A stretch of 64,000 nt of DNA from a virus (lineage: Duplodnaviria; Heunggongvirae; Uroviricota; Caudoviricetes): IMG/VR virus record IMGVR_UViG_3300014208_000038. One strand, given 5' to 3'. The first letter of the stretch is position 1. Each line of letters starts with the position of its first letter. Positions 30,914 to 62,750 of this stretch are shown one piece after another. A model generated the notes under the pieces. It had not been told where the DNA came from. It worked only from the letters and a program-made list of their open reading frames with translations, and ran no database searches. The translations under genes and the position numbers were made by a program.

Positions 30914-30932
30914 AAAAACTCTCTGAATTTAA

Positions 30933-33473: not shown

Positions 33474-35786
33474 TTGACTCAAAAAGAACTATCGATTGAA
33501 GAATTAAAATTTTTAAAAGAGAACAAAATAGACTTTGAAGGAGATTTAATTACAGAATACGTAGAAAGAGGTTATAATCTTTGCCCTGTAAGTAAAGGAA
33601 CTAAAGATCAATACCTATACAAATGGTCGTTGCTTCAAGAAAAAAAAGCAACTCTTCAACAAATTAATGGGTGGAGAGGAAAATATAACTCAGATTGGGT
33701 TCTTGTATGTGGAAAACAGAATGAGAACATTATTGTAATTGATTTTGATGATCCAGAAATTTATGAAAGGTATTTTTCTGAGTATAAGAAAATGTTATCT
33801 AGATCTCCTTCTGGAGGTTATCATCTCTATATTAAGGCCAAAAAACTTCCGGGTGCTATAAATGGATTTGGAGGATTTTTAATTGATATCAAAGGGGAAG
33901 GTTCCGTTTGCCACATTCCTCCATCAGAAGGTAATGATTGGATTTTCTTGGAGTCAGAACCTGATGAAATTGATATAAATATAGAAGATTGGATTCTATC
34001 TTTGCTCCCTTCTGGCAAAATAGAATCAAAATATAAGACAGGGGAAATTCCAGCAGATATTTTTAGTTATGCTAGAGAGAAACTTAAGGTAACTTTTGAG
34101 GATAAAAAAGGTAGATATCTTAAATGTACCTGTCCTTTTCATAGAGGCGGAAAAGAAACAGATGGTTCTTTAACTATATTTGCTCATGACCAAAAGTTTT
34201 GGTGTTTTTCCTGTCATAAAAAGGGAGGAATGTTTGAGCTAATAAAAGAATTTGAGTCAGGAATTACTGAAAATGAAATTTTAGAGCGATATGGTCTAAT
34301 CAAAGAACCTGGAACTATTGTTCAAAAAGTAATTAAGTTAGCTAGAGATAGTTGTAAATTTGTTAAAGATCAGAATAATACTACATATGCAGTTATTATA
34401 AAAAATCAATGTGATATGGATCAGAACATCTATGTTATTGATAGCCTTGGCTTCAGATGGTGGTTAGCTCATAATTATGAAGCTGTATATGAAGGGGCCT
34501 TACCTTCGGATAATCAAGCAAGTCAGGCAATGAAACATTTAGCTGGATTTGCTATTACAAAAGGAGAGAGAATTAGAAGTTTTAATAGAATTGGTGTCGG
34601 AAATAATTCTAAAGAAATATTTTATGATATCGGAGATGGTTCCTATCTTAAAATAGAACCTGATGATATAAATATTGTTAAATCAACAGATCTATTCTTT
34701 AGAAGAGAGAGTCATCAAGGGATACAGGTTTTGCCTCATAAATTTAACCCAATGGATACAATTAAATTATTTGATATTATAAATGTAAAAGAACAGAAGA
34801 GTAAACTGCTTTTAATTGCCTGGCTAGTGACTTCTCTGCTTCCCGATGAAGAACATCCTGTTTTATTACTTCATGGTTCGCAGGGTGCCGGTAAGTCTGT
34901 TGCTGCTAGGATCACAAAAAGGTTAATTGACCCAACCAGTTCAGAAAAGAATGAATTATCTAGGTTAAATGCTAAAGATTATGGGCAAATTACATTTACA
35001 TTAGCTCATAATTTTGTTACTATATTCGATAATATATCTTTTACTGATAAATCAATAGATGATATTCTTTGTTTGGGTGTAACTGGTGGATCAGAAATTA
35101 AAAGAGCCTTATTTACGAACTCAGAAACTGTGTCTACAGATATTAGCAGTACTATTATTCTAACAACTATCAACCCGGATTTGATCACAGCAGGAGATCT
35201 TGGAGATAGATCTATACAGATCGAATTAGATAGACCTGTAGGAAAGTTTTTAAACAGGAAATTTATTGATGCTCACTTTAATTCTGTCAAATCTGAGATT
35301 TTTGGTGGGCTGATTGCCTTGGTACAGCTTTATCTAGAGAAAAAAGAAGAGTTAGAAAAAGAACCATCTAGCTTTAGGATGACTACATATGCCGCTGTTG
35401 GAAAACTTGTAGCCGAAACACTTGGATTAGGAAGTTTTGAAGAGGCTTATCTAGCAGATCAGCTATATATTACTAGATCTGTGCTCGAAAATGAGCCTTT
35501 GTCTCAATTTGTTTATTATATGGCAGATCAACATCCTGATACTCCGTATTCTTTTACGGATCTTTTAGCTGAAATGCAAGATTGGGGCACTAAAACTGGA
35601 ATTAATACTACAATTGGCAAGGAATTTCCAACTGGTGCAAAAGGTATGTCTCAAAAACTAAAAAGATTAGAAGAAGATCTAAGGAGAAGTTGGAAGATTA
35701 AAACTACCAGATGTGATGTAAATAAGAGTAGAGGAATTATGTTTAGTAAACCGGGATCATCCGATATAAGAAGAGAGGAGGAATAA
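33474..35786 (+). CDS. primase-polymerase (prim-pol) / CHC2 zinc-finger / P-loop NTPase (D5-like helicase) fusion protein
   Basis: N-terminal prim-pol (IVIDFDD...SPSGGYHLYI), CHC2 finger CTCPFHRGGKETDGS...CFSCHKKG, Walker A HGSQGAGKSV; apparent TTG start. Confidence 0.75.
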   Translation: MTQKELSIEELKFLKENKIDFEGDLITEYVERGYNLCPVSKGTKDQYLYKWSLLQEKKATLQQINGWRGKYNSDWVLVCGKQNENIIVIDFDDPEIYERYFSEYKKMLSRSPSGGYHLYIKAKKLPGAINGFGGFLIDIKGEGSVCHIPPSEGNDWIFLESEPDEIDINIEDWILSLLPSGKIESKYKTGEIPADIFSYAREKLKVTFEDKKGRYLKCTCPFHRGGKETDGSLTIFAHDQKFWCFSCHKKGGMFELIKEFESGITENEILERYGLIKEPGTIVQKVIKLARDSCKFVKDQNNTTYAVIIKNQCDMDQNIYVIDSLGFRWWLAHNYEAVYEGALPSDNQASQAMKHLAGFAITKGERIRSFNRIGVGNNSKEIFYDIGDGSYLKIEPDDINIVKSTDLFFRRESHQGIQVLPHKFNPMDTIKLFDIINVKEQKSKLLLIAWLVTSLLPDEEHPVLLLHGSQGAGKSVAARITKRLIDPTSSEKNELSRLNAKDYGQITFTLAHNFVTIFDNISFTDKSIDDILCLGVTGGSEIKRALFTNSETVSTDISSTIILTTINPDLITAGDLGDRSIQIELDRPVGKFLNRKFIDAHFNSVKSEIFGGLIALVQLYLEKKEELEKEPSSFRMTTYAAVGKLVAETLGLGSFEEAYLADQLYITRSVLENEPLSQFVYYMADQHPDTPYSFTDLLAEMQDWGTKTGINTTIGKEFPTGAKGMSQKLKRLEEDLRRSWKIKTTRCDVNKSRGIMFSKPGSSDIRREEE

Positions 35787-35788: not shown

Positions 35789-36526
35789 ATTTTTAAATTA
35801 TCACCCATTAATTTAATTGAAGAAGAGAATTTCCATAATGCGTGGGTCAAGGCGATTAAGTTTTGTGATCGTTATGGAACTCCAATAGTTTTTGGAGATA
35901 AAAAAGATCCCAAAAAAGCAAAAGATAGTTGTCAAACTATATCTTTAACCGGAAATGCAATTACTCAAATAGAGAACAAAGAAATTCACCCCAAGTTTCC
36001 ATTTAAACAGATTAACCAATATTGTAGTGAATTTACTAGAGAATATTTAGAAGAATATTTAAAAAAGCCTGATAATCAAAAATTTGCTTATTTATATTTT
36101 GATAGATTAGTTAATTATGATTGTGGAACAGAAAATGGAATTATAGATCAATTATCTGTATTAAAATATCAATTACAAAAACAGATAGAAGATAATATAA
36201 TTAATAATAGATGTCAGGCTATTACTTGGTATCCTGATGTAGATTTGAGATCTAATAGCCCGCCGTGTTTATTGTCTATTCAAGTAAGATATGTAGGAGA
36301 ACAAAAAGTAGATGTTCATTGGCATTTTCGCAGTCGAGATTTGATTTCTGCATGGCAAGCTAATGTAATTGCCTTAACAGAATGCATAAACAGAGAAGTC
36401 GTTTGGCCAAATAATTGTAGACTTGCTAGAATTATAGATTATAGCGATAGCTTGCATCTCTATAATAATATGCAAAATGTGGTAAATGAAGTTGAGTTAG
36501 TTCCTGATATTTCATTCTACCATTAA
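35789..36526 (+). CDS. divergent thymidylate-synthase (ThyA)-family pyrimidine C5-modifying enzyme; lacks an ATG start
   Basis: frame open from 35789 with no in-frame ATG before 36245; ThyA-like motifs RCQAITWYP (RxxxxSAWNP), SPPCLLSIQ (LPPCH with His to Leu), FRSRD (QRSxD), ANVIAL (FNIASY), SLHLYNN (DAHxYxNH). Confidence 0.6.
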   Translation: MFKLSPINLIEEENFHNAWVKAIKFCDRYGTPIVFGDKKDPKKAKDSCQTISLTGNAITQIENKEIHPKFPFKQINQYCSEFTREYLEEYLKKPDNQKFAYLYFDRLVNYDCGTENGIIDQLSVLKYQLQKQIEDNIINNRCQAITWYPDVDLRSNSPPCLLSIQVRYVGEQKVDVHWHFRSRDLISAWQANVIALTECINREVVWPNNCRLARIIDYSDSLHLYNNMQNVVNEVELVPDISFYH

Positions 36527-39667: not shown

Positions 39668-39862
39668 ATGGATGAGAAACAAAAAGTTTTTGTCTACGGT
39701 CTTAGGACTGTAATAAGACAAAAAATCAAGAAAACTGGGGATACAGTTAATAAAGGACAGTTAAGAACAATAGATACAGTTATTGATGGACTTAATATTA
39801 TAGAAGATATGAGTTTAGAAGAGGTTCAAAAATTAATGAAGAAAATGGAAGGTGAGATTTGA
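39668..39862 (+). CDS. hypothetical protein
   Basis: SD aaggaggataagtaaaATG. Confidence 0.4.
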   Translation: MDEKQKVFVYGLRTVIRQKIKKTGDTVNKGQLRTIDTVIDGLNIIEDMSLEEVQKLMKKMEGEI

Positions 39863-40896
39863 TGGAGCAAAATCAAAAATCTAGGCATCTAGCCTCTGTT
39901 CAACAAATTGTAGATATTCAACCTATTGAAAATGCTGATTCTATTGAACTAGCTCGTGTATTAGGTTGGAATGTAGTAATTAAAAAAGGACAATTTAAAG
40001 TGGGAGATCCTATAGTATATTTTGAAATTGATAGTGTCCTCCCCAAAATTCCTGATTTTGAGTTTCTTAAAGATAAGCATTACAAAGTAAAAACTTGTCG
40101 TCTACGTGGAGCTATTTCCCAGGGGCTATGTACTCCATTAAGTATTCTGCCCGAAGGACATTATGATCTTGGAGATGATGTAACAGAGATTCTTGGAGTA
40201 ACTAAATACGAGAAGCCTATTCCTGTTCAGTTGAGAGGGAGAGTTCGAGGTAATTTTCCAAGAGGGATACCTAAAACAGAAGAGCTGCGGGTTCAATCTA
40301 TTCCACATATAGTAAGTAAATATCAAGGATATACGTTTACTCTAACTGAAAAATTAAATGGTACTTCTGCTACGTATTTTTTGGATGAAGAGACTGGATT
40401 ACATTGTTGCAGCAGAAATTTAGATTTACATCCAGAGACGGTACACAAATTCAATGGAACTGCGTATTGGTTTTTGGCTGAGAAACTAAATATTGAAGAA
40501 ATTATTAAAACATTAGGTAAAAATATCGTGATCCAAGGAGAAATCATTGGCAATGGAATTAATGGAAATCAATATAAATTGAATGATCTTCAACTAAAGA
40601 TATTTAATTTATATGATAAAGAAAACCATGTATATCTGGATCAACAAGTAATGAATGATATCATAGAAGGTCTTGGATTTTCTAAAGATTTTTTTGTCCC
40701 GTATCTTGGACAGATTACGTTGGATCAGAATGTAGATCAAATTGTGGAAATGGCTTATGGAAGATCTGTAATTAATCCAGATGTAATTCGGGAAGGCTTA
40801 GTTTTCCGAGCCAGTCCAGAGATTATAGATCCATTTGTGGGCAGAGTAAGCTGGAAATGTATCTCTCCGAGCTTTAACCTAGAGTTCAAAGAATAA
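39859..40896 (+). CDS. RNA ligase-like nucleotidyltransferase (Rnl2-like family) with N-terminal extension
   Basis: motif I-like TEKLNGTSATYF (K-x-N-G in place of K-x-D/H-G), downstream EGxV and K-rich motif V-like regions; 345 aa. Confidence 0.5.
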   Translation: MMEQNQKSRHLASVQQIVDIQPIENADSIELARVLGWNVVIKKGQFKVGDPIVYFEIDSVLPKIPDFEFLKDKHYKVKTCRLRGAISQGLCTPLSILPEGHYDLGDDVTEILGVTKYEKPIPVQLRGRVRGNFPRGIPKTEELRVQSIPHIVSKYQGYTFTLTEKLNGTSATYFLDEETGLHCCSRNLDLHPETVHKFNGTAYWFLAEKLNIEEIIKTLGKNIVIQGEIIGNGINGNQYKLNDLQLKIFNLYDKENHVYLDQQVMNDIIEGLGFSKDFFVPYLGQITLDQNVDQIVEMAYGRSVINPDVIREGLVFRASPEIIDPFVGRVSWKCISPSFNLEFKE

Positions 40897-51175: not shown

Positions 51176-51442
51176 ATGTTTGATTTAGAAGCGGCAGAAA
51201 AAAATTGGAGATTTTTTGAAATAAATAGTCAAATTTTGCCAAGTAATAGTGCAGCTTATTCCCATACTTATGATTTATTTTATGATATCGGAGTTAGGGC
51301 CGGACTTAATGAAATAAGAAAACTTCGAGAATTATTGAAAGAAGAATTTTTTAATAGGGAATGGGAATCTGGAAAATACAGGGATAAAGAAACGGCTATG
51401 GAAGTTGCAGAATTAAAACTAAAATCAAGAGGAATAATATGA
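51176..51442 (+). CDS. hypothetical protein
   Basis: 88-aa ORF. Confidence 0.35.
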   Translation: MFDLEAAEKNWRFFEINSQILPSNSAAYSHTYDLFYDIGVRAGLNEIRKLRELLKEEFFNREWESGKYRDKETAMEVAELKLKSRGII

Positions 51443-51825
51443 AAACATCTTATTTTGCACGTTTTGATAAACTAGTTAGAAGAGGAGAAAATGGAATAGT
51501 AGCAGGGCAAGGAATTTCTATTGCCAGATCTATGCCAAGGAATACAACTTGCACTAAAGAATATATTGCATTAGCTCCATCTCAAAAATTGCTTAATGAT
51601 TATAAACAAGGAAAAGTTAGTTGGGGAGAATATATAAAAGAATATGAAATAATATTTGCTATAAGTAATCCGAAAGAATGGTATAATTATCTCTGTAATT
51701 TAACAGAGGATTATGGTGAACCAATTCTTCTTTGTTGGGAGAATACAAAGTTTAACCTTTGTCATAGAATTTTAGTAGCAAATTGGTTTGAAAAAGCATT
51801 AGGAATTATCATTAACGAGGTGTAA
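51439..51825 (+). CDS. DUF488-family protein
   Basis: ILLCWENTKFNLCHRILVANWF parallels the DUF488 signature (LLC.E.dP..CHR.LlAeWL). Confidence 0.5.
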   Translation: MKTSYFARFDKLVRRGENGIVAGQGISIARSMPRNTTCTKEYIALAPSQKLLNDYKQGKVSWGEYIKEYEIIFAISNPKEWYNYLCNLTEDYGEPILLCWENTKFNLCHRILVANWFEKALGIIINEV

Positions 51826-52427: not shown

Positions 52428-53009
52428 ATGAATTCTAAAAATGATAGAGCTAAAAAGTTAATGGGTTTAAGACCAATAGGAGAAGTATTAAACCCAAATT
52501 TTAGCTTTATTTGTCCTGTTTGTCAAAATGCTTTGCAATTATCCGAATATAATAATTTTTTATGGTGTAAATATTGTAATATAGATATGCCTATCTATTT
52601 AGGATGGAAAGTTCTTTTAATAGATGATGTAAAAGCAATTACAAAAGATTTTTTAAATTTAATAGAAAACATAAAAAAAAATCCTTCTATTGCTAATTAT
52701 ATGGAAAATATAAGGTCAAAAACTTCTCTTGCTTATTGTATAATAAGTATTTTAGAAAAAGAAGGAGAAATAGAATTTAGAAAATTTAGATTTCTTTTAT
52801 TTGAATTATATTCAAATTTAAAAACAAAAAATATAGATATTAAGCTGCCTCATTATTGGTATGTAGACGGACCTCATATATATCTTAGAGGATTACCAGC
52901 AGTATTTAAACTAAGAATTAAAAAGAGTTTGGAAGATCCGAAGATATATAAAGTTACAATTTTATTAGATAAAAATATAAGCCCAAAATGTATAGAGGAA
53001 AACTTTTAA
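52428..53009 (+). CDS. zinc-finger hypothetical protein
   Basis: CPVCQN...CKYCN. Confidence 0.4.
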   Translation: MNSKNDRAKKLMGLRPIGEVLNPNFSFICPVCQNALQLSEYNNFLWCKYCNIDMPIYLGWKVLLIDDVKAITKDFLNLIENIKKNPSIANYMENIRSKTSLAYCIISILEKEGEIEFRKFRFLLFELYSNLKTKNIDIKLPHYWYVDGPHIYLRGLPAVFKLRIKKSLEDPKIYKVTILLDKNISPKCIEENF

Positions 53010-53035
53010 ATACAATTAAGGAGAATAGTAAGATT

Positions 53036-53782
53036 ATGTCGCAAAATAGATATCCATCCTTGGGAGACAGGATGAAAGAATATGAGGCAATTTCTCAAAA
53101 TAAATTGACTAGAAGGATGCCGGTTATTATTAGATTAGATGGCAAAGGATTTCATAATTATACAAGAAAAATGAAAAAACCTTATGATTCAGATCTTCAG
53201 TTAAATATGTGGAGATCTACAATAAGATTGTGTCAAGAGGTCCAAAATACAGTACTTGCATATTGTCAAAGTGATGAGGTTAGTCTTCTTATTGTAGACT
53301 ATAACACATTGAACACTCAACCTTGGTTTGCTAATGAAGTACAAAAATTATGTTCTCTAGCGGCATCTAGTATGACTCAATATTTTAATGATCCCCAAAC
53401 TAGAGGTGAATTACCTTATGGAGCGCGGTTTGATGCTAGATGTTTTAATCTTCCAAGGGAAGAGGTTACAAACTATTTTATTTGGAGAGAATTAGATTGG
53501 ATAAGAAATAGTATTCAAATGTTAGCACAATATTATTTTAACCCAAAAGAGTTATATAAGAAAAATACTAACCAAATGAAAGAAATGATTTTAAAAGAAA
53601 CTGGAATAAATTGGGATACTAATTTACAACCCTTCCAACGTAGAGGAACTACTTGTATAAAGAAAAATGAGAAATGGATTGTTGATTGTAATCTTCCAAT
53701 GTTTAACGAGAATAGAAATTATATAGAAAATTTATTATATAATGATAAAAATATTTTAGATAGTCCCAAAACCTTTTTATAG
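53036..53782 (+). CDS. Thg1-like protein (tRNA-His guanylyltransferase / 3'-5' nucleotidyltransferase family)
   Basis: N-terminal ...PVIIRLDGKGFHNYT... and ...AYCQSDEVSLLI... match the Thg1/TLP palm motifs; SD aaggagaatagtaagattATG; the track start 52988 is an over-extension. Confidence 0.6.
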   Translation: MSQNRYPSLGDRMKEYEAISQNKLTRRMPVIIRLDGKGFHNYTRKMKKPYDSDLQLNMWRSTIRLCQEVQNTVLAYCQSDEVSLLIVDYNTLNTQPWFANEVQKLCSLAASSMTQYFNDPQTRGELPYGARFDARCFNLPREEVTNYFIWRELDWIRNSIQMLAQYYFNPKELYKKNTNQMKEMILKETGINWDTNLQPFQRRGTTCIKKNEKWIVDCNLPMFNENRNYIENLLYNDKNILDSPKTFL

Positions 53783-53825: not shown

Positions 53826-55067
53826 ATGTCACAACAAGTTGAGATACCAAAAGAAATTACGCCATCGGTTTTAAATGAACAGGCAAAGGTTCAAAATATT
53901 GAACTAGAAGTTTTTGAGGAAATGTATAAGGCTCAATTAATTAAGCTTACAGATCAAGGAGTAACAGAATATGACCTACAAGGGCAAATGATTAATAAAG
54001 AGCAGCTTGCTTTCTTTAGCACAATAAGTGCTCTTAAGACAAAAGCTCGATCTAGGCAGAATGTAGAGGGGGCCACTGTGATTATTGTTGGCCTTGGAAA
54101 CAGCGGAAAAACAAAGGAGAAGGAACAGCCTTATAGAGCAGTTTATGTAATTGCTGATATGACTATTAAGCCAGAACTATTTTTGGGGCTTAAGAATGAT
54201 GGTCACTATGTAGGATTTAACGCTACCATCTGGAGCAGCAAAAAAGTAACTCCTGGTGAAGTTTGGACTGCAAAAATCAGTAGATCTGGTGCTAGATTTT
54301 CCCTAGATCTAAAAGAAAAAGCAACAATGCCTGATGAATTTGAATTAGTAACAGTAATGGATCAAGTGCTTCCACTTAAGGCATTCCGAGTTCTAACCTG
54401 GGGAAGCAATAAGATTGAAAGAAAAGATAATAGTGGATCTTTTGATTCCGCGTTTATGAATGTTCTTGTTCAGTCACAGGATGGGAAAAAGGAAGTTGTT
54501 TTCATATCAACAACTCTGGATGGTTGGACAAAGACTGCACCAGATACTGGTAAAGTTTATTACGGGGATATTGTCTCCAAAGGAGAATATCATAATTTAT
54601 ATAGTAATCCAATCGAAGCTGTAGGAAAAATAATTACACTAGATAATATTGATAGTGTGGAGAACTACCAAGATTTCTCCAACTTAGATACTCTAGTAGA
54701 GGAACCAAGACCAGAAGAGAAATATCCTGGAACTACGAAGATTGTAGTCCTACAAGGGTTTGGCAGTAGCGAAGTTACTACAGTTGATACAGAGAATGGG
54801 GGAATTGCTGCCTTTGCAGAGATTTCTGATATAATGAATAATGCAATTCCTATTGCAGCATTTACAGATATCTTTGATTCTGTAGTAGATTCTGAAGGTC
54901 AACTGCCACCACTTATTAAGGTTCTAGCTAAGTTGGGTTGGAGGCTTAATAAGAATACTCAGGAATATGAATTAGGAGCTAATGTACTCTCAATTGAACC
55001 AGTTGGTTCTTTTGGAAAAACTGGGGAAAATAAGCCAGTAGTAGACGACATTGAAGAAGGTTGGTAA
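53826..55067 (+). CDS. hypothetical protein with P-loop-like GLGNSGKT motif; less AT-biased than neighbours
   Basis: 413 aa; SD agaggagaaattATG; function unknown. Confidence 0.45.
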   Translation: MSQQVEIPKEITPSVLNEQAKVQNIELEVFEEMYKAQLIKLTDQGVTEYDLQGQMINKEQLAFFSTISALKTKARSRQNVEGATVIIVGLGNSGKTKEKEQPYRAVYVIADMTIKPELFLGLKNDGHYVGFNATIWSSKKVTPGEVWTAKISRSGARFSLDLKEKATMPDEFELVTVMDQVLPLKAFRVLTWGSNKIERKDNSGSFDSAFMNVLVQSQDGKKEVVFISTTLDGWTKTAPDTGKVYYGDIVSKGEYHNLYSNPIEAVGKIITLDNIDSVENYQDFSNLDTLVEEPRPEEKYPGTTKIVVLQGFGSSEVTTVDTENGGIAAFAEISDIMNNAIPIAAFTDIFDSVVDSEGQLPPLIKVLAKLGWRLNKNTQEYELGANVLSIEPVGSFGKTGENKPVVDDIEEGW

Positions 55068-55502: not shown

Positions 55503-55697
55503 ATGCAGTGTGATAATGCTCAGATAGTTGATGTTCGAGATAACGGAATGGTAATTGGACAAGATATAATTTGTTCTAAAAAGAAAGGTAAAATTTTGGG
55601 AGGATTTAGAGCTGCTCAAGGAGGGTTTTATATGCCTGACTGCTATCGATTATGTTGGGACCGAGTAGTTAACAAAAAATTTGTAAATAGGGAGTAA
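55503..55697 (+). CDS. hypothetical protein
   Basis: 64-aa ORF. Confidence 0.3.
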   Translation: MQCDNAQIVDVRDNGMVIGQDIICSKKKGKILGGFRAAQGGFYMPDCYRLCWDRVVNKKFVNRE

Positions 55698-55699
55698 AA

Positions 55700-56176
55700 A
55701 TGTCAGAAAAATTAAAACCTCCTACTGAAATTTTACCACATTCTATTGATTATAAAGATAATTCTTGGATACAATATGAGATTTGGGAATACGGAATGTG
55801 GGCACATCTTTTAGTTAAGAGATCACAGCATAGAAAAACTGAGGAAAAAGCTGAAAAAGATCTAAGGGATGCTTTTAATTATCTAATTATGGCACAAAAA
55901 AGAGTAGAATTTGAATTAAAAAAACTAGAACACGATTCTCGGCATCCTAAAATATCCTTTGGATTATATGGAGAACCAAAAGAAATAGGATTTTTTGAAA
56001 CAGAAAAAGTTAAAGAAATAATCTCAAAAAATTTAATGAGTACAGATATAATAACATTAAGATATGGAAGAGATGAGGAAGAAGAATGTTATGCTATTGT
56101 TGAAAAAGTAATTCCTATAATAAAAATGGACAAAGTTCTATGTTATAAAATATATTATAGAAAAATTGAAGAATAA
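55700..56176 (+). CDS. hypothetical protein
   Basis: 158-aa ORF. Confidence 0.4.
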   Translation: MSEKLKPPTEILPHSIDYKDNSWIQYEIWEYGMWAHLLVKRSQHRKTEEKAEKDLRDAFNYLIMAQKRVEFELKKLEHDSRHPKISFGLYGEPKEIGFFETEKVKEIISKNLMSTDIITLRYGRDEEEECYAIVEKVIPIIKMDKVLCYKIYYRKIEE

Positions 56177-56344: not shown

Positions 56345-57430
56345 TTGATTAATATGAAATTATTTAATAAAGAAAATACTGAAAAAGATAATCCTGTTAA
56401 ACTTCGGCTTCAAGAAGTTTTGTGGGAGATTACAAGAAAATGTAATATGGATTGTAAATATTGTGGTAGTAAAGGGGTCAAAACGACTGAAAATTCCACA
56501 GATTCTCAAATAATGACTATTGCAGGGGAACTTAAAAAATATCCTCCAGAAATTGTTACAATTACAGGTGGAGAACCAGGATGTCTTGATACAGAGATAT
56601 TAGATAAAGTAATTGGCGATTTATCTGATGCAGGAATTAAGGTTAGAATAGTTACTAATGGAACATTTTTATCATATCGAAATTGGTATAAAAACTTTAA
56701 TAAAGTTGAAATTATTGGGTTAAGTGTTAATGAACCTTGGCCATATTGGTTCGATTATGTAGATGGTATTGAAAAAGATTTGACTATTATTACTAATTTT
56801 GGTACTCATAATATTTTCTACTTTGATGAGTTAACAAAATTCGTAAAAGATAATCATTTTAATACATGGCAAATTCAATTAACAATGGGCGAATTTTGTC
56901 TGCAACCAGAAGGAATTGAATATTTAAGAAATAAAATTAAGAAGCTAAATGGAATAAATTACATTTTATCTGATAATTTACAAGATGAGCATATTTGCAG
57001 CGCGGGGATAAACTCTTGTAGTATTACCGCTGAAGGATTTGTATGTTATTGTCTCTCTGAAAGATCAAGGAACGAGGATTGTTCGGTTGGGATAGTTGGT
57101 AATCTCAATGAAGAGAGTCTTAAATCAATTTGGGAAACCCGATTTCAAGAAGCTAGATTTGGTACTGGATGGGGAAATAAGTGCAGAGATTGCATAAAAT
57201 ATCCCAAAATAAAAGAGTTAACTCCCACGATTTCTAAGAATTCTCATAAAACAAAGATTAAAGATATTCTCCCAGAGGATATATATATTCCAAAAGATGA
57301 AGAACCTTGGTGTCAACCTAGAGTAACTATGTATGGAGTAAATAGGGGAAATGTATTTAGCTATGGAGTTACTAACTGGGAGATTGTAAATGGATCTGTG
57401 ACTAGATACGAGGAACATAGAAAAAAATAG
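56345..57430 (+). CDS. radical SAM protein with Cys-rich C-terminal (SPASM-like) region
   Basis: CNMDCKYCG (CxxxCxxC) near the N-terminus; C-terminal CSAGINSCSITAEGFVCYC cluster. Confidence 0.65.
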   Translation: MINMKLFNKENTEKDNPVKLRLQEVLWEITRKCNMDCKYCGSKGVKTTENSTDSQIMTIAGELKKYPPEIVTITGGEPGCLDTEILDKVIGDLSDAGIKVRIVTNGTFLSYRNWYKNFNKVEIIGLSVNEPWPYWFDYVDGIEKDLTIITNFGTHNIFYFDELTKFVKDNHFNTWQIQLTMGEFCLQPEGIEYLRNKIKKLNGINYILSDNLQDEHICSAGINSCSITAEGFVCYCLSERSRNEDCSVGIVGNLNEESLKSIWETRFQEARFGTGWGNKCRDCIKYPKIKELTPTISKNSHKTKIKDILPEDIYIPKDEEPWCQPRVTMYGVNRGNVFSYGVTNWEIVNGSVTRYEEHRKK

Positions 57431-57443: not shown

Positions 57444-60400
57444 ATGTTTAAAGATATCCAAGAGTTAAATTCTCAAATTAAGGTTTGCCAAAAGTGTAAA
57501 TTAGCTCAAGTTAGAGAAAAAGAAAATGGAAAAATAGTTATTGGAAGAGGGTCCAAAAATCCAGATATTTTGTTCGTGGGCGAAGGCCCTGGGCAAACCG
57601 AAATGCAAGAGGGTCGTCCCTTTTGCGGTCGAAGTGGAAAACTCTTGGATATTGCATTAGAAAAAAATAATATTAAAGATTATGCGATAGTAAACATAGT
57701 TAAATGTCATCCTCCGGGTAATCGTCCTCCAGAGAAAGATGAAATTGATGCCTGCAAATCTTGGTTAGAGGAGCAAATAAAACTCCTTAATCCTAAGACA
57801 ATTGTTCCTCTTGGAAATACAGCTCTTAAATTCTTTTTTCCAAAAAATGGTATAACTTCCTCTCACAAACAATGTTTTGAATTAAACGGTAGACAATTTA
57901 TTCCATTATATCATCCTGCCTATATTTTAAGAAATCCGAGTATGAGAGATTCTTATATAAAGGATTTCACTATTTTAAATAATAATTCAAACCATGTAAA
58001 AGGAGAATCTATCAAAGAAGAAATAAAAAAAAACCATATACATCAGGAGATCTCTATAAAAAATTTTCAAGAGGATGTCTTGCCTTTCCACTTAAAAATT
58101 GATGGTCAATCTCAACCTTTTGTTCATTTACATAATCATACAGAACGAGGTTCTCCTGGAGATGTCTACAGAAATTTAGATGAATGGGCTATTGATCTTA
58201 AAGAAAAGGGCTTTGGCGCAGGCGCTTGTACAGATCATGGATCTTGTTCTGGATTATATTATTTCCAAAGGGCTATGCAAAAACAAAATATTAAGCCAAT
58301 TCTTGGAGTAGAATTATATATTAAAGAAGGAGCAAAAACATCGCACATGGTTTTACTTGTAAAAAATGAAATAGGATGGCAGAATCTTTTAAAAATTAGA
58401 AGAGAATCTTGGCTTAATAGAGATGCGGGGAAAAAGGTAAGCAATAATAGTAGAAGCACTATTGAGAGTGTTTTAGAAAATCATGAAGGTCTAATTTGTT
58501 CCACCGCCTGCATAAACGGATTTTTAGGTTATAAAGTTAAAAATCAGCTTGAATATGAACCAATGATTCTTAAATTTAAAGAAGTATTTGGTGAGGATTT
58601 TTACCTAGAAGTGCAACCACATATAATTCCTGAACAAGTAATGGTTAACAAAGTGGTTATCCAACTTCACGAAAAATATAATATTCCAATTATAATAACA
58701 GCAGATACTCATTATACACATAAAGAAGATAAAGAAATTCATAACATAGTGGAAGCCCTCAGATATAGAAGAGTATTTCACAAAGATGTTACTATAAATG
58801 ATAACCCAGGATTTACAGGAAATACATATTATAATTTAACCTCAGAAGATATTGACCAACTGGTAGAAGAAAATCATAGTTATCTAAAACCTTATCTAAC
58901 AGAGGCTATGGCAAATACAATAAGAATTGCAGAAAAATGCAATTTTATTCTTCCTAGTTCATATCAAAATACTTTACCTGAGATACCGGATGCAGAAGAA
59001 TATGTTGCTCAAAAAATTGCCAGCAATATGCACTTAGTAGCACATCATGATCCAAAATTGATTCAAGAAAGATTGGATCTTGAATTAACTAGAATTCGAA
59101 ATAAGAATTTTTTACCTTACTTTGTTATTGTAGCTCGTCTTTTTGAGTATGCAAAACTGCAAGGGATACCTTGCGGTCCTGGTAGAGGTAGCTCTGGAGG
59201 TTCACTTGTAAGTTATTTGCTAGGGATTACGAAAGTTGACCCCATTAGATTCAATCTTTTGTTTGAGAGATTTTATTCTGAAGCAAGAATTGATCCTCCA
59301 GATATTGATAGTGATTTTAGTCAAGAGAGGAGAGAAGAACTTATTGGCTATTTGAAGTCGCAATATGGTAATGATAATGTTTCTAATATTATTACCTTTT
59401 CAAAATGGAAGGGAAAAGGCGTATTTCGAGATGTTTGTAGAATTTATAATATTCCTTTGTCCCAAGTCAATTTAGTAGCAAAATTTATTGAATCCACAAA
59501 AGAAGGACATGATATCCAAGAAGCAATTGACAAAAACGATATTGTAAGAGAATTTTATGTAACTAATCCTAAAGTAATGGATATAGCAAAAGCTTTAGAA
59601 GGACATACAAATTTTTATGGAAAACATGCCGCTGGTATAGTTATTTGTCCTAATTTAGCTCAAAAAATTCCATTGGAAGCAATTAAAGATGCTGAATTAA
59701 CTTCATGGGAGAAGGATGCTCTTGGAGAACTAGGAATTATTAAGCTAGACTTGCTTGGATTATCAATTCTAGATGAAATAGATAGAACTATTACTAATGC
59801 TAACCTAACTTGGGAAGATTTACCTTATGAGTTTGAAGATCCAAAGGTTTATGATTTATTGAATAAAGGATTAACAATGGGGGTTCATCAATTTGAAACA
59901 CTTTCTGCAACTCAATATGTTCAAAAAGTTCATCCAGACGCATTTCAAGAGCTTATTGATATTACGTGTCTCAATAGACCTGGCCCGACAAAAGCTGGAG
60001 CAGCATTAGAATATGTATTAAGAAAGAATAGTAAATCTTGGGAATATTATCATTCTATTATATCTGATATTACAAAAGAAACAAAAGGTCTTATTATAAC
60101 CCAAGAGCAAGTTATGAGAATAGTTAATAAAGTTGGTGGATTTAGTTTAGAAGAAGCTGAAAAAGTTAGAAAGATTATAGGAAAATCAAAAGGATCAGAT
60201 GCACTAAATAAAAAGAGAGAACAATTTATAAATGGAGCAATAGAACAAAATGGTTTAACAAAAGAAGAAGCAGAAGGTTTATTTGATAAATTAGTTAATT
60301 TTGGTGGATACGGTTTTAATAAATGTTTAAGCGGAGATACACAAATATTTGATGCCAATACAGGATGCCATTATACAATAGAATTTTTATTTAAAAACCA

Positions 60401-62750
60401 AAATAAGATTTTTATTTGGTCTATGAATAACCAATATAAATTAGAAAAACAACCCATATTAAATATTTATGATAACGGAATTCAAGATGTTTTTGAAATA
60501 AAAACCAGAACAGGAAGAAAAATAAAAACTACGATAAATCATAAATTTTATACAATTGATGGTTGGAAGGAATTATCTAATTTAAAGATATATAGTCATA
60601 TAGCTTTACCTAGATTAATTCCTAATAATATTAGTAATCCTGTTTTTTGTGAGGAATTTAAATTAATTGTGTTAGCTTATGCACTTACGGAAGGTAATTT
60701 GTGTCACCCACATGGATTTTATATATATTCAACAGATAAACTTCAGATAAGAGAATATGTCCAAGCTTTAAGAAAATTTAATAACGTTAGACCCTCAGTC
60801 GGAAAAGATGATAACAAATTATATGTATATAGTGCATATAAAAATCAAAAGAACCCAAATGAAGCTGATCTATGGATGAGATCTCTTAATTTATATGGTA
60901 AAAAAGCAACACAAAAAGAAATTCCAGAATTTATATTCTCTTTAGCTGAGGATCAATTATCTCTTTTTATTGCAAAAATGTGGGAAGGAGATGGATGTAT
61001 ATTTACAGGAAAGAATGATAGCATAAGTATATATTATGCTACATCTTCAGAAGTAATGGCTTATCAAGTTGTAGAACTACTCCTTAAATTAGGAGTATAT
61101 TCTTCTGTTTTTAAAAAGTATTTTAAATATAGAGGTGGAGTAAAAATTGGATATACTGTACAAATTAGTGGGAAAGAAAATTTTGCAAATTTTATTCACA
61201 AGACATATCCATTTTTAACAACTAAACGATATCAAGCAGATAAAGTTCTATATATTATATCAAATTTCGTTAAGAATGTAAAAATTGGGACCAGGGATAT
61301 TATTCCAAAATCAATAGTTACTGAAATAAAAGAAGAGATACTAAAAACTGGAACAACAATTAGACAATTTTGTATAAATAAAAATATTTCTGAAAGAAAT
61401 TTATATATGGACCCAAAGAAAAAAGGTTTTGGAAGAAAAACAATTTCCAATTTTGGGGTTTTTTTGAATTCTTCAAGATTACAAAATTTAGCAAATTCTG
61501 ATTTATATTGGGATGAAATTAAAAGTATAGAATATATAGGTCAAGAGCAAACTTATGATGTGGAAGTAAAAGATAATCATAACTTGATAGCAAATAATAT
61601 AATTGTACATAATTCGCACGCAGTAGCGTATTCATTTTTAACTTATTGGTCAGCATGGCTTAAAGCAAACTATCCACTTGAAACCTTTGCAGCATTCATA
61701 GATAATGCAAATAGTGAACAACTTGCTATTTATATAAGAGAAGCTCAGGAAATGGGGATTATTATAAAACCTCCTTCGATGGAATCTCCATATATAAATA
61801 ACTCATTTAACAAAGAAAAAAATACTGTCTATATAGGTCTTCACTTATTACAACAAATTGGTGAATCTGAGGCGCAAGTAATTATTAGTAGTGGAAAATC
61901 TTTTGCTAGATTGAAAAAGAATGTATCAGAAAGAACTCTGAAAATATTAATTGAAGTGGGGTATTTTGATTCTATTGAATCTAACAGAAAACAACTTTAT
62001 AGAAATTTAGAGTTATCAAAGAATACATTATCTAGATTTTTAGAGGAACCAACTGTCTATCAAGATTGGTCTATAAATGAAAAGTTAACAAGAATGAGAA
62101 AACATCTATCTTGGCCTCATAGTAGTTCTGAACTACCAGAAACTATATATGACAAAAACATAATTACATTAGATCAGTATAATAAGGAAAGGGATGCAAT
62201 AGAGACACCTATTTTGTTGAAGGGTTGGATTTACAACATCCGAGAATTTGATTCTAAAGATGGGAATAGTAAAACAGCTTATTTAGAATTTGGAGATGGA
62301 TCTTCTGGTGCCAGAATTGCTCTTGTTCTGCCCTACGGATTATTTAATACATATAAAAATGTAGTAGAACAAGTTAAGACTGGGGAACTAGTTGACTCTA
62401 TAATGGTATTAGTTAATCCTTATTTTAATTCATTTAAGGCCGGATTACATAAAAAAGAGGGAAAATTGAATATTTTAAAGATATTTAAATCAGGAGAACA
62501 AATTTCAGATAAAATACTGAGAGTATTAAATTTAGAAGAACTACAATTAAAGAAAAATCAGATGGTAATAACTAGTACTCAATTTGGTACAAGTAAAAAA
62601 GGAAACCAATATTGTGTAGCCACCACAATTGATCATCTAGGATTTTCTGGTAAGGGATTAATTATGATGAACAAAAGTCCCATTACACCAGATATTGGTG
62701 GAATAATTAATGGTAGATGGAGTGAAGAAGGATTTTTAACGGGGAATTAA
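57444..62750 (+). CDS. dnaE: DNA polymerase III alpha (DnaE-type) with N-terminal family-4 uracil-DNA glycosylase domain; contains an intein
   Basis: UDG-4 motifs CxxC, GEGPG...RPFCGRSG, HPAYILR plus 4 Cys; PHP motif HLHNHTERG; DnaE signature GPGRGSSGGSLVSYLLGIT; extein junction GYGFNK|...|SHAVAYS matches E. coli GYGFNKSHSAAYA. Confidence 0.85.
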   Translation: MFKDIQELNSQIKVCQKCKLAQVREKENGKIVIGRGSKNPDILFVGEGPGQTEMQEGRPFCGRSGKLLDIALEKNNIKDYAIVNIVKCHPPGNRPPEKDEIDACKSWLEEQIKLLNPKTIVPLGNTALKFFFPKNGITSSHKQCFELNGRQFIPLYHPAYILRNPSMRDSYIKDFTILNNNSNHVKGESIKEEIKKNHIHQEISIKNFQEDVLPFHLKIDGQSQPFVHLHNHTERGSPGDVYRNLDEWAIDLKEKGFGAGACTDHGSCSGLYYFQRAMQKQNIKPILGVELYIKEGAKTSHMVLLVKNEIGWQNLLKIRRESWLNRDAGKKVSNNSRSTIESVLENHEGLICSTACINGFLGYKVKNQLEYEPMILKFKEVFGEDFYLEVQPHIIPEQVMVNKVVIQLHEKYNIPIIITADTHYTHKEDKEIHNIVEALRYRRVFHKDVTINDNPGFTGNTYYNLTSEDIDQLVEENHSYLKPYLTEAMANTIRIAEKCNFILPSSYQNTLPEIPDAEEYVAQKIASNMHLVAHHDPKLIQERLDLELTRIRNKNFLPYFVIVARLFEYAKLQGIPCGPGRGSSGGSLVSYLLGITKVDPIRFNLLFERFYSEARIDPPDIDSDFSQERREELIGYLKSQYGNDNVSNIITFSKWKGKGVFRDVCRIYNIPLSQVNLVAKFIESTKEGHDIQEAIDKNDIVREFYVTNPKVMDIAKALEGHTNFYGKHAAGIVICPNLAQKIPLEAIKDAELTSWEKDALGELGIIKLDLLGLSILDEIDRTITNANLTWEDLPYEFEDPKVYDLLNKGLTMGVHQFETLSATQYVQKVHPDAFQELIDITCLNRPGPTKAGAALEYVLRKNSKSWEYYHSIISDITKETKGLIITQEQVMRIVNKVGGFSLEEAEKVRKIIGKSKGSDALNKKREQFINGAIEQNGLTKEEAEGLFDKLVNFGGYGFNKCLSGDTQIFDANTGCHYTIEFLFKNQNKIFIWSMNNQYKLEKQPILNIYDNGIQDVFEIKTRTGRKIKTTINHKFYTIDGWKELSNLKIYSHIALPRLIPNNISNPVFCEEFKLIVLAYALTEGNLCHPHGFYIYSTDKLQIREYVQALRKFNNVRPSVGKDDNKLYVYSAYKNQKNPNEADLWMRSLNLYGKKATQKEIPEFIFSLAEDQLSLFIAKMWEGDGCIFTGKNDSISIYYATSSEVMAYQVVELLLKLGVYSSVFKKYFKYRGGVKIGYTVQISGKENFANFIHKTYPFLTTKRYQADKVLYIISNFVKNVKIGTRDIIPKSIVTEIKEEILKTGTTIRQFCINKNISERNLYMDPKKKGFGRKTISNFGVFLNSSRLQNLANSDLYWDEIKSIEYIGQEQTYDVEVKDNHNLIANNIIVHNSHAVAYSFLTYWSAWLKANYPLETFAAFIDNANSEQLAIYIREAQEMGIIIKPPSMESPYINNSFNKEKNTVYIGLHLLQQIGESEAQVIISSGKSFARLKKNVSERTLKILIEVGYFDSIESNRKQLYRNLELSKNTLSRFLEEPTVYQDWSINEKLTRMRKHLSWPHSSSELPETIYDKNIITLDQYNKERDAIETPILLKGWIYNIREFDSKDGNSKTAYLEFGDGSSGARIALVLPYGLFNTYKNVVEQVKTGELVDSIMVLVNPYFNSFKAGLHKKEGKLNILKIFKSGEQISDKILRVLNLEELQLKKNQMVITSTQFGTSKKGNQYCVATTIDHLGFSGKGLIMMNKSPITPDIGGIINGRWSEEGFLTGN
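60324..61613 (+). other. 430-aa intein with LAGLIDADG homing-endonuclease core inside dnaE
   Basis: starts CLSGDTQIF (Cys1), ends IVHN followed by Ser+1; LAGLIDADG-like LAYALTEGN and LFIAKMWEGDGCI blocks; removal restores the contiguous DnaE GYGFNKSH motif. Confidence 0.8.

Follow-up and report, generated by a model that had tools for sequence, protein, structure and literature searches.

In herpesviruses, poxviruses and several phages, the replicative DNA polymerase recruits a uracil-DNA glycosylase (UDG) or is fused to one, and the reason is debated, with repair, editing, maintenance of modified bases and processivity as the candidate explanations. The locus described here raises the same question for a family-C polymerase. 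In a 64-kb stretch of viral DNA, which we call the window, a single reading frame joins a UDG to a DnaE-type replicase, adding a clean and, judging from its residues, apparently fully active UDG to this polymerase family. What might such a glycosylase do on a replicase?

A glycosylase and a DnaE-type polymerase share one reading frame

The sequence-only reading of this DNA had placed a UDG, a PHP domain and a DnaE core in one frame at 57444-62750, and this arrangement was confirmed, as all the motifs that it quoted are in the translation and Pfam and NCBIfam agree on the domains (Table 1). The glycosylase part holds CQKC (C15, C18), GEGPG (46-50), RPFCGRSGKLLD (58-69) and HPAYILR (157-163), and the polymerase part holds HLHNH (228-232), GPGRGSS... 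(from 578) and GYGFNK (955-960). The domain search suggested with that reading matched UDG, PHP and DnaE-type models on the single ORF, far beyond chance: Pfam gave UDG at 34-169 (E 3.4e-31), PHP at 228-393, DNA_pol3_alpha at 529-772, DNA_pol3_finger at 775-936 and HHH_6 at 1442-1518, and NCBIfam gave TIGR00758 UDG_fam4 (140.7 bits, cutoff 125.3) and TIGR00594 (658.5, cutoff 434.35).

Table 1. Features of the UDG-DnaE locus, in window coordinates (aa, residues of the precursor)
Feature	Coordinates	Strand	Extent and basis
Precursor ORF	57444..62750	+	1768 aa; UDG, linker, PHP, Pol III alpha core, intein, HhH/OB
UDG domain of family 4 (4Fe-4S)	57444..57986	+	aa 1-181; TIGR00758, phmmer, AF2, Foldseek
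Polar/charged linker	57987..58106	+	aa 182-221; predicted disordered, pLDDT <50
PHP domain region	58107..59003	+	aa 222-520; Pfam PHP 228-393; aligned with 2HPI (Taq Pol III alpha)
Pol III alpha palm/thumb/fingers	59004..60323	+	aa 521-960; Pfam, 2HPI alignment; ends GYGFNK (N-extein junction)
Upstream recombination (co-conversion) tract	59842..60323	+	abuts intein site; ~25-29% nucleotide divergence from intein-free allele
Class-1 intein with LAGLIDADG homing endonuclease	60324..61613	+	430 aa, aa 961-1390; between K960 and S1391 (GYGFNK/SH)
Divergent tract, shorter part downstream of the intein	61614..61750	+	comparison with intein-free allele
C-extein	61614..62750	+	aa 1391-1768 + stop codon; fingers end, HhH 1442-1518, C-terminal OB-fold units

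By sequence, key residues and predicted fold, the N-terminus is a bona fide family-4 UDG, as had been claimed. Besides TIGR00758, PF03167 matched well above its cutoff (108.7 bits vs 24.3), and the archaeal equivalog NF040953 scored below its own (153.9 vs 250). Phmmer aligned the domain and its motifs to the Thermus thermophilus UDG 1UI0 (E 3.7e-36), in which Cys15, Cys18, Cys88 and Cys104 line up with the 4Fe-4S cluster cysteines. GEGPG 46-50, Phe60 (the stacking Phe after RP), Asn84 (the uracil-reading Asn) and His157, followed by PAYILR, were aligned as well, so that all the catalytic residues, a check proposed with the earlier claim, are present. The cluster cysteines are conserved in 171-173 of 173 stand-alone homologues. 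Structure prediction, named beforehand as a possible refutation, recovered the UDG-4 fold, with an AF2 model at pLDDT ~90-97 over residues 11-180 that Foldseek superposed on 1UI1, 1L9G and 4ZBX (target-normalised TM 0.81-0.84, rmsd 1.6-2.4 Å). The domain seems to be catalytically intact, activity being predicted from these residues. A covalent UDG of the UdgX type was ruled out (TIGR03914, 96.4 vs cutoff 189.95).

The polymerase carries a predicted proofreader

The nine metal ligands of the PHP domain are present (H230, H232, D240, H265, E290, H301, C356, D421 and H423) and are invariant or at least 90% conserved across 41 fusion proteins, and we predict that this domain is an active 3'-5' proofreading exonuclease. 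In the core, the catalytic aspartates D620 and D622 (PDIDSDF) and D769 (KLDLLGL) align to PDIDTDF and KMDFLGL of the Taq enzyme, and Foldseek matched the polymerase core to 2HPI with an E value of 2.5e-55. The polymerase scored below every DnaE, DnaE2 and PolC equivalog or subfamily cutoff (PRK05673, for example, 666 vs 1002), and by these profile comparisons it is a family-C enzyme but seems to be no orthologue of a cellular DnaE class.

At the C-terminus, the HhH domain, of the beta-binding type, was recognised by HHH_6 just above cutoff (26.3 bits vs 25.6). The AF2 model of the C-extein (pLDDT 87.6) matched the C-terminal parts of the Mtb, Taq and E. coli Pol III alpha subunits (7PU7, 4IQJ and 5FKU) and also RPA-type OB folds, and the Pfam OB model PF01336 had no match on the ORF. 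A regular-expression search of the ORF for beta-clamp/PIP motifs, a crude search that divergent motifs would escape, gave matches inside the intein and none in the exteins. No tau-binding tail was recognised in the polymerase, and no clamp gene was identified within the window.

An intein interrupts the fingers

The sequence-only reading, in which GYGFNK-SH is at most a hint of an interruption, did not recognise the intein, a quarter of the ORF. Pfam places Intein_splicing at 972-1390 and LAGLIDADG_3 at 1171-1252, and the intein models scored above their cutoffs (TIGR01445, 42.2 vs 24.5; TIGR01443, 26.7 vs 15.6; PF14890, 83.1 vs 35.8). The splicing residues are Cys961, T1030-I-N-H1033 in block B, the terminal H1389-N1390 and Ser1391 at +1. 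The LAGLIDADG motifs, assigned by eye, are LAYALTEGN (1077-1085) and AKMWEGDG (1177-1184), with PF14528 at 51.3 vs 22.5. The GC content is 0.26 in the intein vs 0.31-0.32 in the exteins. The intein is predicted to splice itself out, leaving a product of 1338 aa (the 1768-aa precursor minus 430 aa), and to encode a homing endonuclease.

An allele from another metagenome (L006) encodes the same fusion as an uninterrupted 1338-aa protein; it lacks exactly the 1290 nt of the intein and is elsewhere 95-98% identical in DNA. Its target site reads …GGATATAGTTTTAATCGT / AGCCACGTAGTAGCT…, the slash marking the insertion point. Homologues at 80%, 71% and 69% identity also appear to be intein-free, going by their lengths (~1330 aa) and by precomputed Pfam lists without an intein domain, and one protein whose exteins are 41% identical to those of the window (P0123) has an intein at the same site. 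The intein-free allele diverges by ~1-2% in the rest of the gene, far less than next to the intein (Table 1), and the flanks of the insertion site are, from this sequence comparison, a mosaic recombination tract. The tract of the intein-free allele is 81.6-85% identical to P0420/P0421, above the gene background of about 70%, and for the window's own tract no close match was found among the alleles and homologues compared.

The split DnaE intein of cyanobacteria likewise lies in the conserved ...FNKSH... region of DnaE, and the models in NCBIfam for the two halves of the cyanobacterial protein (PRK09532 and PRK07373) align across the junctions of the window's intein. In contrast to the cyanobacterial element, the intein found here is contiguous and contains a LAGLIDADG endonuclease. 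We take the cyanobacterial site to be a few residues upstream, before CFNKSH, the site in the window being between FNK and SH.

The fusion recurs in two arrangements

The architecture itself is already known, since the same fusion is annotated in Methanobacterium virus PhiF1, and the window protein is not unique but is a further member of a known, uncharacterised UDG-DnaE architecture. Related elements, where the sequence-only reading had proposed to look for the fusion, do contain it. An exhaustive HMMER search found 88 UDG+DnaE fusions among the best 150 cluster representatives (50% identity). The UDG is found at either end of DnaE, depending on the lineage, being N-terminal in 47 of these 88 and C-terminal in 41, and we regard UDG-DnaE as a widespread viral architecture. 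A word-indexed homology search recovered only one other fusion (P0001), and the family became visible by exhaustive HMMER and profile searches. The contigs that bear fusions are at most about 120 kb long and have phage-like replication modules; one of them (L009) shows the surroundings expected of a bacteriophage, where a DnaB-like helicase, a clamp-loader-like AAA protein and a 5'-3' exonuclease are encoded. The literature searched, which was of limited coverage, included papers on UDG-PolA and none on UDG-DnaE or on DnaE in methanogen viruses, nor did it yield biochemical data on any UDG-DnaE fusion.

Could a frameshift, a mis-assembly or a chimeric contig have joined separate UDG and dnaE genes? 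Split forms do exist, as PhiF1-like viruses encode UDG-PHP and the Pol III core in two ORFs. Even there, however, the UDG stays joined to PHP and is never free-standing. The identical 1768-aa protein (P0416) is encoded on three contigs, the fusion is intact in the allele from another metagenome, and 47 clusters carry it N-terminally, so that an artefact has virtually no chance of being the explanation.

The UDG appears to be a tethered rather than a rigid module, since the linker is modelled at low pLDDT, the UDG-to-PHP spacing differs by about 300 residues between homologues, and the attachment is at either DnaE end. Its catalytic residues are retained in most fusions, suggesting selection on catalysis in most lineages: the N-terminal fusions keep E47 in 31/47, N84 in 46/47 and H157 in 42/47, and the C-terminal fusions keep the equivalents in 38/41, 37/41 and 39/41. 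In about a third of the N-terminal fusions the catalytic Glu and/or the Fe-S cysteines are gone while the domain is kept, so catalysis is dispensable in some lineages, and there, at least, the domain must have a structural role.

This loss bears on whether the UDG fold could be mainly a DNA-binding, processivity or docking module of the replicase. Vaccinia D4 is a case in which glycosylase activity is dispensable for replication. An inactive UDG has also been kept in N4-like PolAs (PMC10201439), and the negative searches for a beta-clamp or PIP motif in the exteins and for a clamp gene in the window would fit as well. Nevertheless, we consider such a non-catalytic role unlikely for this protein, as it and its close relatives keep every catalytic and cluster residue, most C-terminal fusions keep them too, and a long disordered tether with a variable attachment point argues against a fixed structural role. 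An accessory role could matter for a DnaE that works in a cell without a beta clamp.

The virus probably infects a methanogen

The genome of the virus is at least 104 kb long and AT-rich (30% GC). Megablast of window positions 40000-64000 against 50,697 phage records gave no match. A TnpB insertion is 85-90% identical to Methanothrix/Methanosaeta proteins that form multi-copy clusters on contigs of 3.0-3.6 Mb, and from this one insertion element the host is probably the methanogenic archaeon Methanothrix, which makes the archaeal flavour noted in the sequence-only reading plausible. Against this host assignment, a 'Bacilli bacterium' MAG includes a 3.7-kb fragment of an 80%-identical homologue. 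Scanning genome contigs with the N-extein yielded one unrelated DnaE (uncultured bacterium, 32% identity, UDG uncovered), with no prophage and no clue to the host.

The co-encoded genes on which the earlier proposal of modified-pyrimidine policing drew are in the window: a gene of the dCTP-deaminase/dUTPase fold (DCD), a small one resembling dCMP/cytidine deaminases and an ORF for a divergent ThyA-like protein. In an SPO1-like version of this proposal, thymine would be replaced by a modified pyrimidine such as 5-hydroxymethyluracil, and the tethered UDG would remove plain uracil, or tell it apart from the modified base, and so keep the modification in place. UDG-PolA occurs in SPO1, SP-10 and SP-15, whose DNA has modified uracil, and such a role has been speculated upon (PMC10201439). 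The ThyA-like ORF was missed by the Pfam thymidylate synthase model and detected only by tblastn with the ThyA of a metagenomic PhiF1 relative (L012), the gene next to the polymerase on its upstream side encodes a radical-SAM/SPASM protein in every close relative, and in PhiF1-like loci DCD/dUTPase, ThyA and Tmk are immediately upstream of UDG-DnaE. However, these genes are indistinguishable from those of ordinary dTMP synthesis, and in PhiF1 the ThyA homologue carries the annotation of a methanogen-type thymidylate synthase. Divergence is a known property of methanogen ThyA. The ThyA-like ORF keeps, as judged by eye, the Asn at the uracil-reading position and the context of the catalytic Cys, no glucosyl- or other base-modifying transferase is linked to it, and the motifs of the UDG are of the ordinary uracil-specific family-4 type. 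The ThyA-like and DCD genes are also ~21 kb from the polymerase and do not distinguish thymidylate synthesis from base hypermodification. The proposal found no direct support in this analysis, and we regard it as quite unlikely. BLASTP with the ThyA and DCD of PhiF1 gave no match in the window, and PHROGs gave no family for ten neighbouring hypothetical proteins, ORFs of candidate clamp or SSB size included.

Replication-coupled uracil exclusion as the preferred explanation

We consider it most likely, with moderate confidence, that the fusion serves to exclude uracil during replication, through an active UDG on a flexible tether in the DnaE-type replicase of a Methanothrix virus, as suggested by residues, models and analogy. 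The gene would encode the self-contained replicase of a large AT-rich virus, most probably of Methanothrix. After removal of the intein, the mature polypeptide would be a family-C polymerase with an intact PHP proofreader, and the ~40-residue tether would hold the UDG at the viral replication fork, where it may excise uracil while DNA is made. The uracil could come from dUTP misincorporation or from cytosine deamination, the former being a particular risk because the genome is 70% A+T and a dCTP-deaminase route leads to dUMP. An association with dUMP/dTMP metabolism speaks for this role too, through the DCD/dUTPase, ThyA and Tmk genes beside UDG-DnaE in PhiF1-like loci and the DCD/dUTPase-like, ThyA-like and deaminase genes of the window. 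Functional analogues are the UDG-polymerase associations of herpes- and poxviruses and the PCNA-bound archaeal UDG. The phage UDG-PolA fusions, for which functions have been proposed, are a further analogue (PMC10201439). Excision of uracil from a single-stranded template at the fork would leave blocking abasic sites, so the timing of UDG action and the strand on which it acts matter.

A possible, though doubtful, refinement is that UDG and PHP act together as a second editing pathway of a family-C replicase, one that is base-specific. The UDG would flip out and remove uracil at or near the primer terminus, PHP would trim the abasic 3' end, and synthesis would resume. The UDG still fused to PHP in the split PhiF1-like genes and the invariant or nearly invariant PHP ligands would fit this editing pathway, but the C-terminal UDG fusions argue that PHP adjacency is not required. 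If it did operate, uracil exclusion would be built in by a route used neither by cellular DnaE nor by archaeal PolB/PolD.

Archaeal PolB and PolD stall at template uracil, and a pocket that senses uracil is present in archaeal family-B enzymes but not known from bacterial DnaE. In an archaeal host, the tethered UDG might give a family-C polymerase a comparable ability to sense deaminated cytosine, or to stall there, before the base reaches the active site. PhiF1 and the window are two archaeal-virus cases, and PhiF1 alone among the 50,697 phage records gave a match to UDG and PHP together at a single location. Such read-ahead sensing is nonetheless highly improbable, as the fusion also occurs in bacteriophage-type contexts and is hence not archaea-specific, and a flexible tether gives no set geometry toward the template channel.

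The natural variants of this family are ready-made experiments, comparing active with degenerate UDG, single-chain with split at the boundary of PHP and core, and intein-plus with intein-minus, the last two alleles sharing about 98% identity once the tract that flanks the intein is set aside. Possible tools are a compact polymerase, predicted to be self-proofreading and uracil-excising, and a new LAGLIDADG intein/endonuclease pair with a known target site. In the literature searched, only family-B viral polymerases have been described for methanogen viruses (PMC11348598).

Comparison with known systems

The closest known system is PhiF1 (GenBank MK994522; host Methanothermobacter thermautotrophicus), in which ORF58/ORF57 encode UDG, then PHP, then Pol III alpha, in the same order as in the window, and in tblastn a single piece of PhiF1, at 33% identity, spans 99% of a query made of UDG and PHP. 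Like the window, PhiF1 represents a methanogen virus with ThyA and dCTP deaminase nearby. In PhiF1 and its metagenomic relatives (L010 and L012), however, the protein is split into UDG-PHP (~450-510 aa) and the Pol III core (~800-1180 aa), whereas in the window it is one polypeptide, and PhiF1 has no intein at the window's site. At E<=1e-5 the polymerase is the only protein of the PhiF1 locus with a match in the window. PhiF1 has a genome of 74 kb, with 45% GC in this locus, compared with the larger and more AT-rich genome described here.

The UDG-PolA fusions (SPO1, SP-10, SP-15, N4-like cluster 17 and PaBG; PDB 9QHS) also carry a family-4 UDG N-terminally on a viral replicative polymerase, and the window UDG is matched by phrog_17 and by PDB 9qhs_A. 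As in UDG-DnaE, catalytic residues are kept in some UDG-PolA lineages and lost in others, and the functions proposed are uracil editing, modified-base maintenance and processivity (PMC10201439; PMC7412058). The polymerase there is of family A, in contrast to family C in the window. In models of UDG-PolA the UDG is wedged rigidly between exo and pol domains (PMC10201439), whereas the window UDG sits on a low-confidence 40-residue linker and other DnaE lineages carry it at the opposite end.

Stand-alone family-4 UDGs (UDGA of T. thermophilus, 1UI0; TM0511 of Thermotoga maritima, 1L9G; Sulfolobus tokodaii, 4ZBX) are 36-41% identical to the window UDG and share its fold, Fe-S cysteines and catalytic motifs. 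They are free proteins of ~190-205 aa that act in cellular base-excision repair, while the window UDG is covalently attached to a replicase. Lastly, bacterial DnaE1 enzymes with an active PHP (Thermus aquaticus, 2HPI; M. tuberculosis, 5LEW/7PU7) have PHP, palm, thumb, fingers, HhH and OB in the same order as the window polymerase, which is ~30% identical to them and has the nine PHP ligands and the catalytic Asp residues in common with them. Unlike these enzymes, the window protein has an added UDG and belongs to a virus, with an archaeal cell as the probable setting of its work.

RESULTS

The UDG-DnaE gene is one ORF of 1768 codons that opens with an ATG, 14 nt past the stop of the radical-SAM/SPASM gene upstream. 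[quoted passage not shown] Pfam and NCBIfam bore out the domains so assigned, but the reading had overlooked an intein that makes up a quarter of the ORF. By NCBIfam, the N-terminus is a family-4 UDG (TIGR00758, 140.7 bits, cutoff 125.3) and the body belongs to the Pol III alpha superfamily (TIGR00594, 658.5, cutoff 434.35), while the ORF fell below all equivalog-level cutoffs for DnaE, DnaE2, and PolC. In PHROGs, the polymerase body matched phrog_405 'DNA polymerase' (E 1.7e-243). A frameshift or assembly artefact was rejected as the source of the fusion, since the identical 1768-aa protein is present on three contigs of 79-104 kb and an independent, uninterrupted fusion is found on L006, a contig from another JGI metagenome.

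Features of the window and domains of the UDG-DnaE protein (nt, window positions; aa, protein positions)
Feature	Position	Strand	Remark
RtcB, two RNA ligases and Thg1-like 3'-5' nucleotidyltransferase	nt 1476-2636, 31459-32109, 39859-40896, 52988-53782		RNA repair
ThiF/E1-like and JAB-like pair	nt 9878-10441 and 11543-12241		Candidate counter-defence
IS200/605-type island	nt ~20000-22050		~2 kb, ~44% GC
TnpB ORF	nt 20726-22015		In island
Tad6 (type I Thoeris inhibitor) homologue	nt 22823-23293		Candidate counter-defence, E 1.4e-20
Minus-strand block	nt 30131-31370	-	Two tRNA genes (Tyr-GTA, Pro-TGG)
Divergent ThyA-like ORF	nt 35789-36526	+	245-codon open frame
'Active DUF488-N3a' protein	nt 51439-51825		Candidate counter-defence
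Conserved 413-aa protein	nt 53826-55067	+	Upstream of polymerase
158-aa ORF	nt 55700-56176		Indel 55611-56164
Radical-SAM/SPASM gene	nt 56345-57430	+	Adjoins UDG-DnaE upstream
UDG-DnaE	nt 57444-62750	+	
Divergent tract	nt ~59842-60323 and 61614-~61750		
Segment precisely absent from L006	nt 60324-61613		
PrimPol with Zn ribbon, NrdD/NrdG, SNF2 helicase			Replication/nucleotide supply
DCD/dUTPase-like protein, small dCMP/cytidine-deaminase-like protein			Pyrimidine metabolism
UDG	aa 34-169		Pfam, E 3.4e-31
PHP	aa 228-393		Pfam
DNA_pol3_alpha	aa 529-772		Pfam
DNA_pol3_finger	aa 775-936		Pfam
Intein	aa 961-1390		Exact insertion
Intein_splicing	aa 972-1390		Pfam
LAGLIDADG_3	aa 1171-1252		Pfam
HHH_6	aa 1442-1518		Pfam

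When PDB sequences were searched with phmmer, the best match of the UDG was the Thermus thermophilus family-4 enzyme 1UI0 (E 3.7e-36), with the Thermotoga and Sulfolobus enzymes just below. The alignment to 1UI0 matched all four cluster cysteines (C15, C18, C88, and C104), GEGPG (46-50), the stacking Phe (F60), the uracil-reading Asn (N84), and the HPAYILR motif (H157). The N-extein, meaning the protein up to the intein, was modelled with AlphaFold2 from an alignment of 41 sequences; the model had a mean pLDDT of 89.1, with most of the UDG above 90 and the linker (aa 182-221) below 50. The family-4 fold is present in this model, as Foldseek superposed the modelled UDG on 1UI1, 1L9G, and 4ZBX with a target-normalised TM of 0.81-0.84 and an rmsd of 1.6-2.4 A. 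UdgX membership was ruled out by score in NCBIfam.

The PHP region could be aligned to Taq Pol III alpha and has all nine metal ligands of the proofreading type (H230, H232, D240, H265, E290, H301, C356, D421, and H423), each invariant or at least 90% conserved across 41 fusion homologues. The palm retains its aspartates D620 and D622 (PDIDSDF) and D769. In Foldseek searches, the N-extein model resembled the Taq, Mycobacterium tuberculosis, and Escherichia coli Pol III alpha subunits (E down to 2.5e-55), and the model of the C-extein, which follows the intein (pLDDT 87.6), matched the C-terminal parts of the same three enzymes, its final ~180 residues being OB-fold-like. A motif search of the exteins found no beta-clamp/PIP motif. 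Judged by alignments and models, the enzyme seems to be a full family-C replicase with proofreading of its own.

Alignment with the closest homologue, the 1338-aa protein P0121 of L006, placed the intein exactly between GYGFNK and SHAVAYS. It begins with Cys961, has a block B (TINH, 1030-1033) and two LAGLIDADG motifs (1077-1085 and 1177-1184), and ends in His-Asn before Ser1391; it would splice out to leave a 1338-aa enzyme. L006 and the window are 95-98% identical in DNA across 11.4 kb. In the gene they differ at 213 nucleotides, unevenly distributed, with 0-9 per 150 nt in most of it and 44, 42, 34, and 30 in the four bins at the insertion site. The two alleles share 98.5% and 98.2% protein identity on either side of this tract and 74.3% inside it, where the intein-free allele reaches 85% identity to the more distant relative P0420 and 81.6% to P0421, above the ~70% of the gene background. 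Uneven divergence together with this kinship is what gene conversion around a homing site would be expected to leave behind. Either direction would produce it: the window lineage may have been invaded, with co-conversion, or the intein-free lineage may have lost the intein by conversion. The flanking tract is mosaic in all close relatives, suggesting repeated recombination at the homing site. A more distant homologue, P0123, has a 46%-identical intein at the same site with exteins 41% identical to those of the window, and homologues at 80%, 71%, and 69% identity appear intein-free, as they are ~1330 aa long and their precomputed Pfam lists hold no intein domain.

An exhaustive HMMER search with aa 1-460 against 1.84 billion cluster representatives showed how widespread the fusion is. 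Among the 150 best matches, 88 combined the UDG with PHP and/or the Pol III core, with the UDG N-terminal in 47 and after the C-terminal domain in 41. A rough neighbor-joining ordering of PHP domains clustered most C-terminal fusions apart from the N-terminal ones, which suggests distinct lineages and perhaps independent fusions. UDG-to-polymerase spacing differs by ~300 residues across fusions. Where the contig size was recorded or looked up, it does not exceed ~120 kb, and the neighbours are phage-like. Catalytic UDG residues are conserved in most fusions, not all: E47 is kept in 31/47 N-terminal and 38/41 C-terminal fusions, N84 in 46/47 and 37/41, and H157 in 42/47 and 39/41. In four Hainich groundwater contigs, another UDG-DnaE is broken into three neighbouring ORFs (L002, 10001-15911): one of 769 aa with UDG and PHP, one of 510 aa that carries an intein-splicing domain, and one of 693 aa. 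The first two are just 2 nt apart, in different frames, and a split intein, frameshifting, or recoding may underlie the break. Their neighbours are a dCMP deaminase, a dUTPase_2/NT5C protein, and ThyX.

The window has 30% G+C, a strong positive GC skew, and almost all genes on the plus strand. No DNA-level relative was found among the sequenced phages searched, and ten of its hypothetical proteins had no PHROG family. The RNA-repair set, in which one ligase carries a PHA02142 OB domain, could counter host tRNA-cleaving defences. The best host clue is TnpB in the GC-richer island, which is 93% identical to metagenomic proteins and whose named relatives (85-90% identity) all come from Methanothrix sp., Methanothrix soehngenii, or Methanosaeta sp., in multi-copy clusters on 3.0-3.6 Mb contigs. 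Replication of the virus in Methanothrix has good, if indirect, support from this; a 3.7-kb fragment of an 80%-identical homologue, binned in a 'Bacilli bacterium' MAG, is a weak signal against it. The sole sizeable minus-strand block, where GC skew falls to ~0 (30-32 kb), also encodes a C2H2 zinc-finger plus DUF559/REase_MTES_1575 nuclease and may be a mobile insertion; in contig L007, a related nuclease lies directly upstream of UDG-DnaE.

Only a tblastn search with the L012 ThyA (E 2e-10) detected the ThyA-like ORF, which had no match to Pfam PF00303. Its frame has no ATG, GTG, or TTG before 36245, and GGAGG (35776-35781) precedes ATA (35783) and ATT (35789) right after the PrimPol stop, suggesting a non-canonical start codon. 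Near the polymerase, the radical-SAM/SPASM gene holds the same position in L006 and in L014, the source contig. The 413-aa protein, also in both and distantly like an L007 gene, ends in an acidic tail (...VVDDIEEGW) and matched nothing in Pfam or PHROG; it may bind single-stranded DNA or serve the replisome in some other way. The 158-aa ORF is shared with L014, but L006, elsewhere 98% identical, has ~45 bp in its place. Downstream of the window's end (L014 17399-18343 and 19581-25307), the polymerase gene gives way to small ORFs along with genes for a DHH/DHHA1 (RecJ-like) phosphoesterase and a NADAR protein, and then to a block of minus-strand genes of 454, 537, and 609 aa that had no Pfam match and possibly start a divergently transcribed structural module.

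DISCUSSION

The UDG-DnaE finding is real, and its architecture had been read correctly. The analysis shows the domain composition, intact UDG, PHP, and polymerase catalytic residues, a flexible linker, the recurrence of the fusion, and the intein polymorphism. We infer that the UDG is active on uracil. Its tether would concentrate it at the viral fork, where misincorporated dUMP in a 70% A+T genome, or deaminated cytosine, would be removed during replication, and the abasic sites would be processed by host or viral enzymes. Variation in the tether and the use of either end of the polymerase for attachment speak for co-localisation rather than a fixed geometry. Among the alternatives, a role in processivity or structure has to be invoked at least where a lineage carries a degenerate UDG. 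A template uracil sensor suited to archaeal life is weakened by fusions in bacteriophage-like contexts. Policing of a modified base, raised in the sequence-only reading and proposed for SPO1, seems improbable here. The function of UDG-DnaE is now easy to test.

Searching 50,697 phage records for UDG and PHP together returned only Methanobacterium virus PhiF1, whose host is Methanothermobacter (99% coverage, 33% identity). In PhiF1 the remainder of DnaE is in ORF57, with a methanogen-type ThyA just upstream and a dCTP deaminase nearby. PhiF1-like loci split the polymerase into UDG-PHP (~450-510 aa) and a Pol III core (~800-1180 aa), which overlap in PhiF1 and L010 and are separated by a free-standing HNH endonuclease gene in L012 and L013. 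As the split is common to PhiF1, L010, and L012, it is natural, and the UDG remains with PHP. These three share a module of ORF61/60 homologues, Tmk, ThyA, DCD/dUTPase, UDG-PHP, Pol III core, PD-(D/E)XK, an ORF55 homologue, and ERCC4, and the neighbourhood Tmk-ThyA-DCD ... PD-(D/E)XK-x-ERCC4 is conserved across the PhiF1-like loci (L001, L010-L013), so that dUMP/dTMP genes are associated with UDG-DnaE there.

The literature searched gave no description of UDG-DnaE or of a DnaE-type polymerase in a methanogen virus, and a review-type statement has archaeal viruses encoding family-B polymerases (PMC11348598). UDG is fused to a family-A polymerase in SPO1, SP-10, SP-15, N4-like phages, and PaBG, with the same proposed roles as considered here (PMC10201439; PMC7412058). 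Annotated in PhiF1 and abundant in metagenomes, UDG-DnaE is not a new kind of protein; new here are its occurrence as one fully intact chain in a large virus that probably infects Methanothrix, the survey of two fusion arrangements and natural split forms, and a LAGLIDADG intein in presence/absence polymorphism with a conversion tract.
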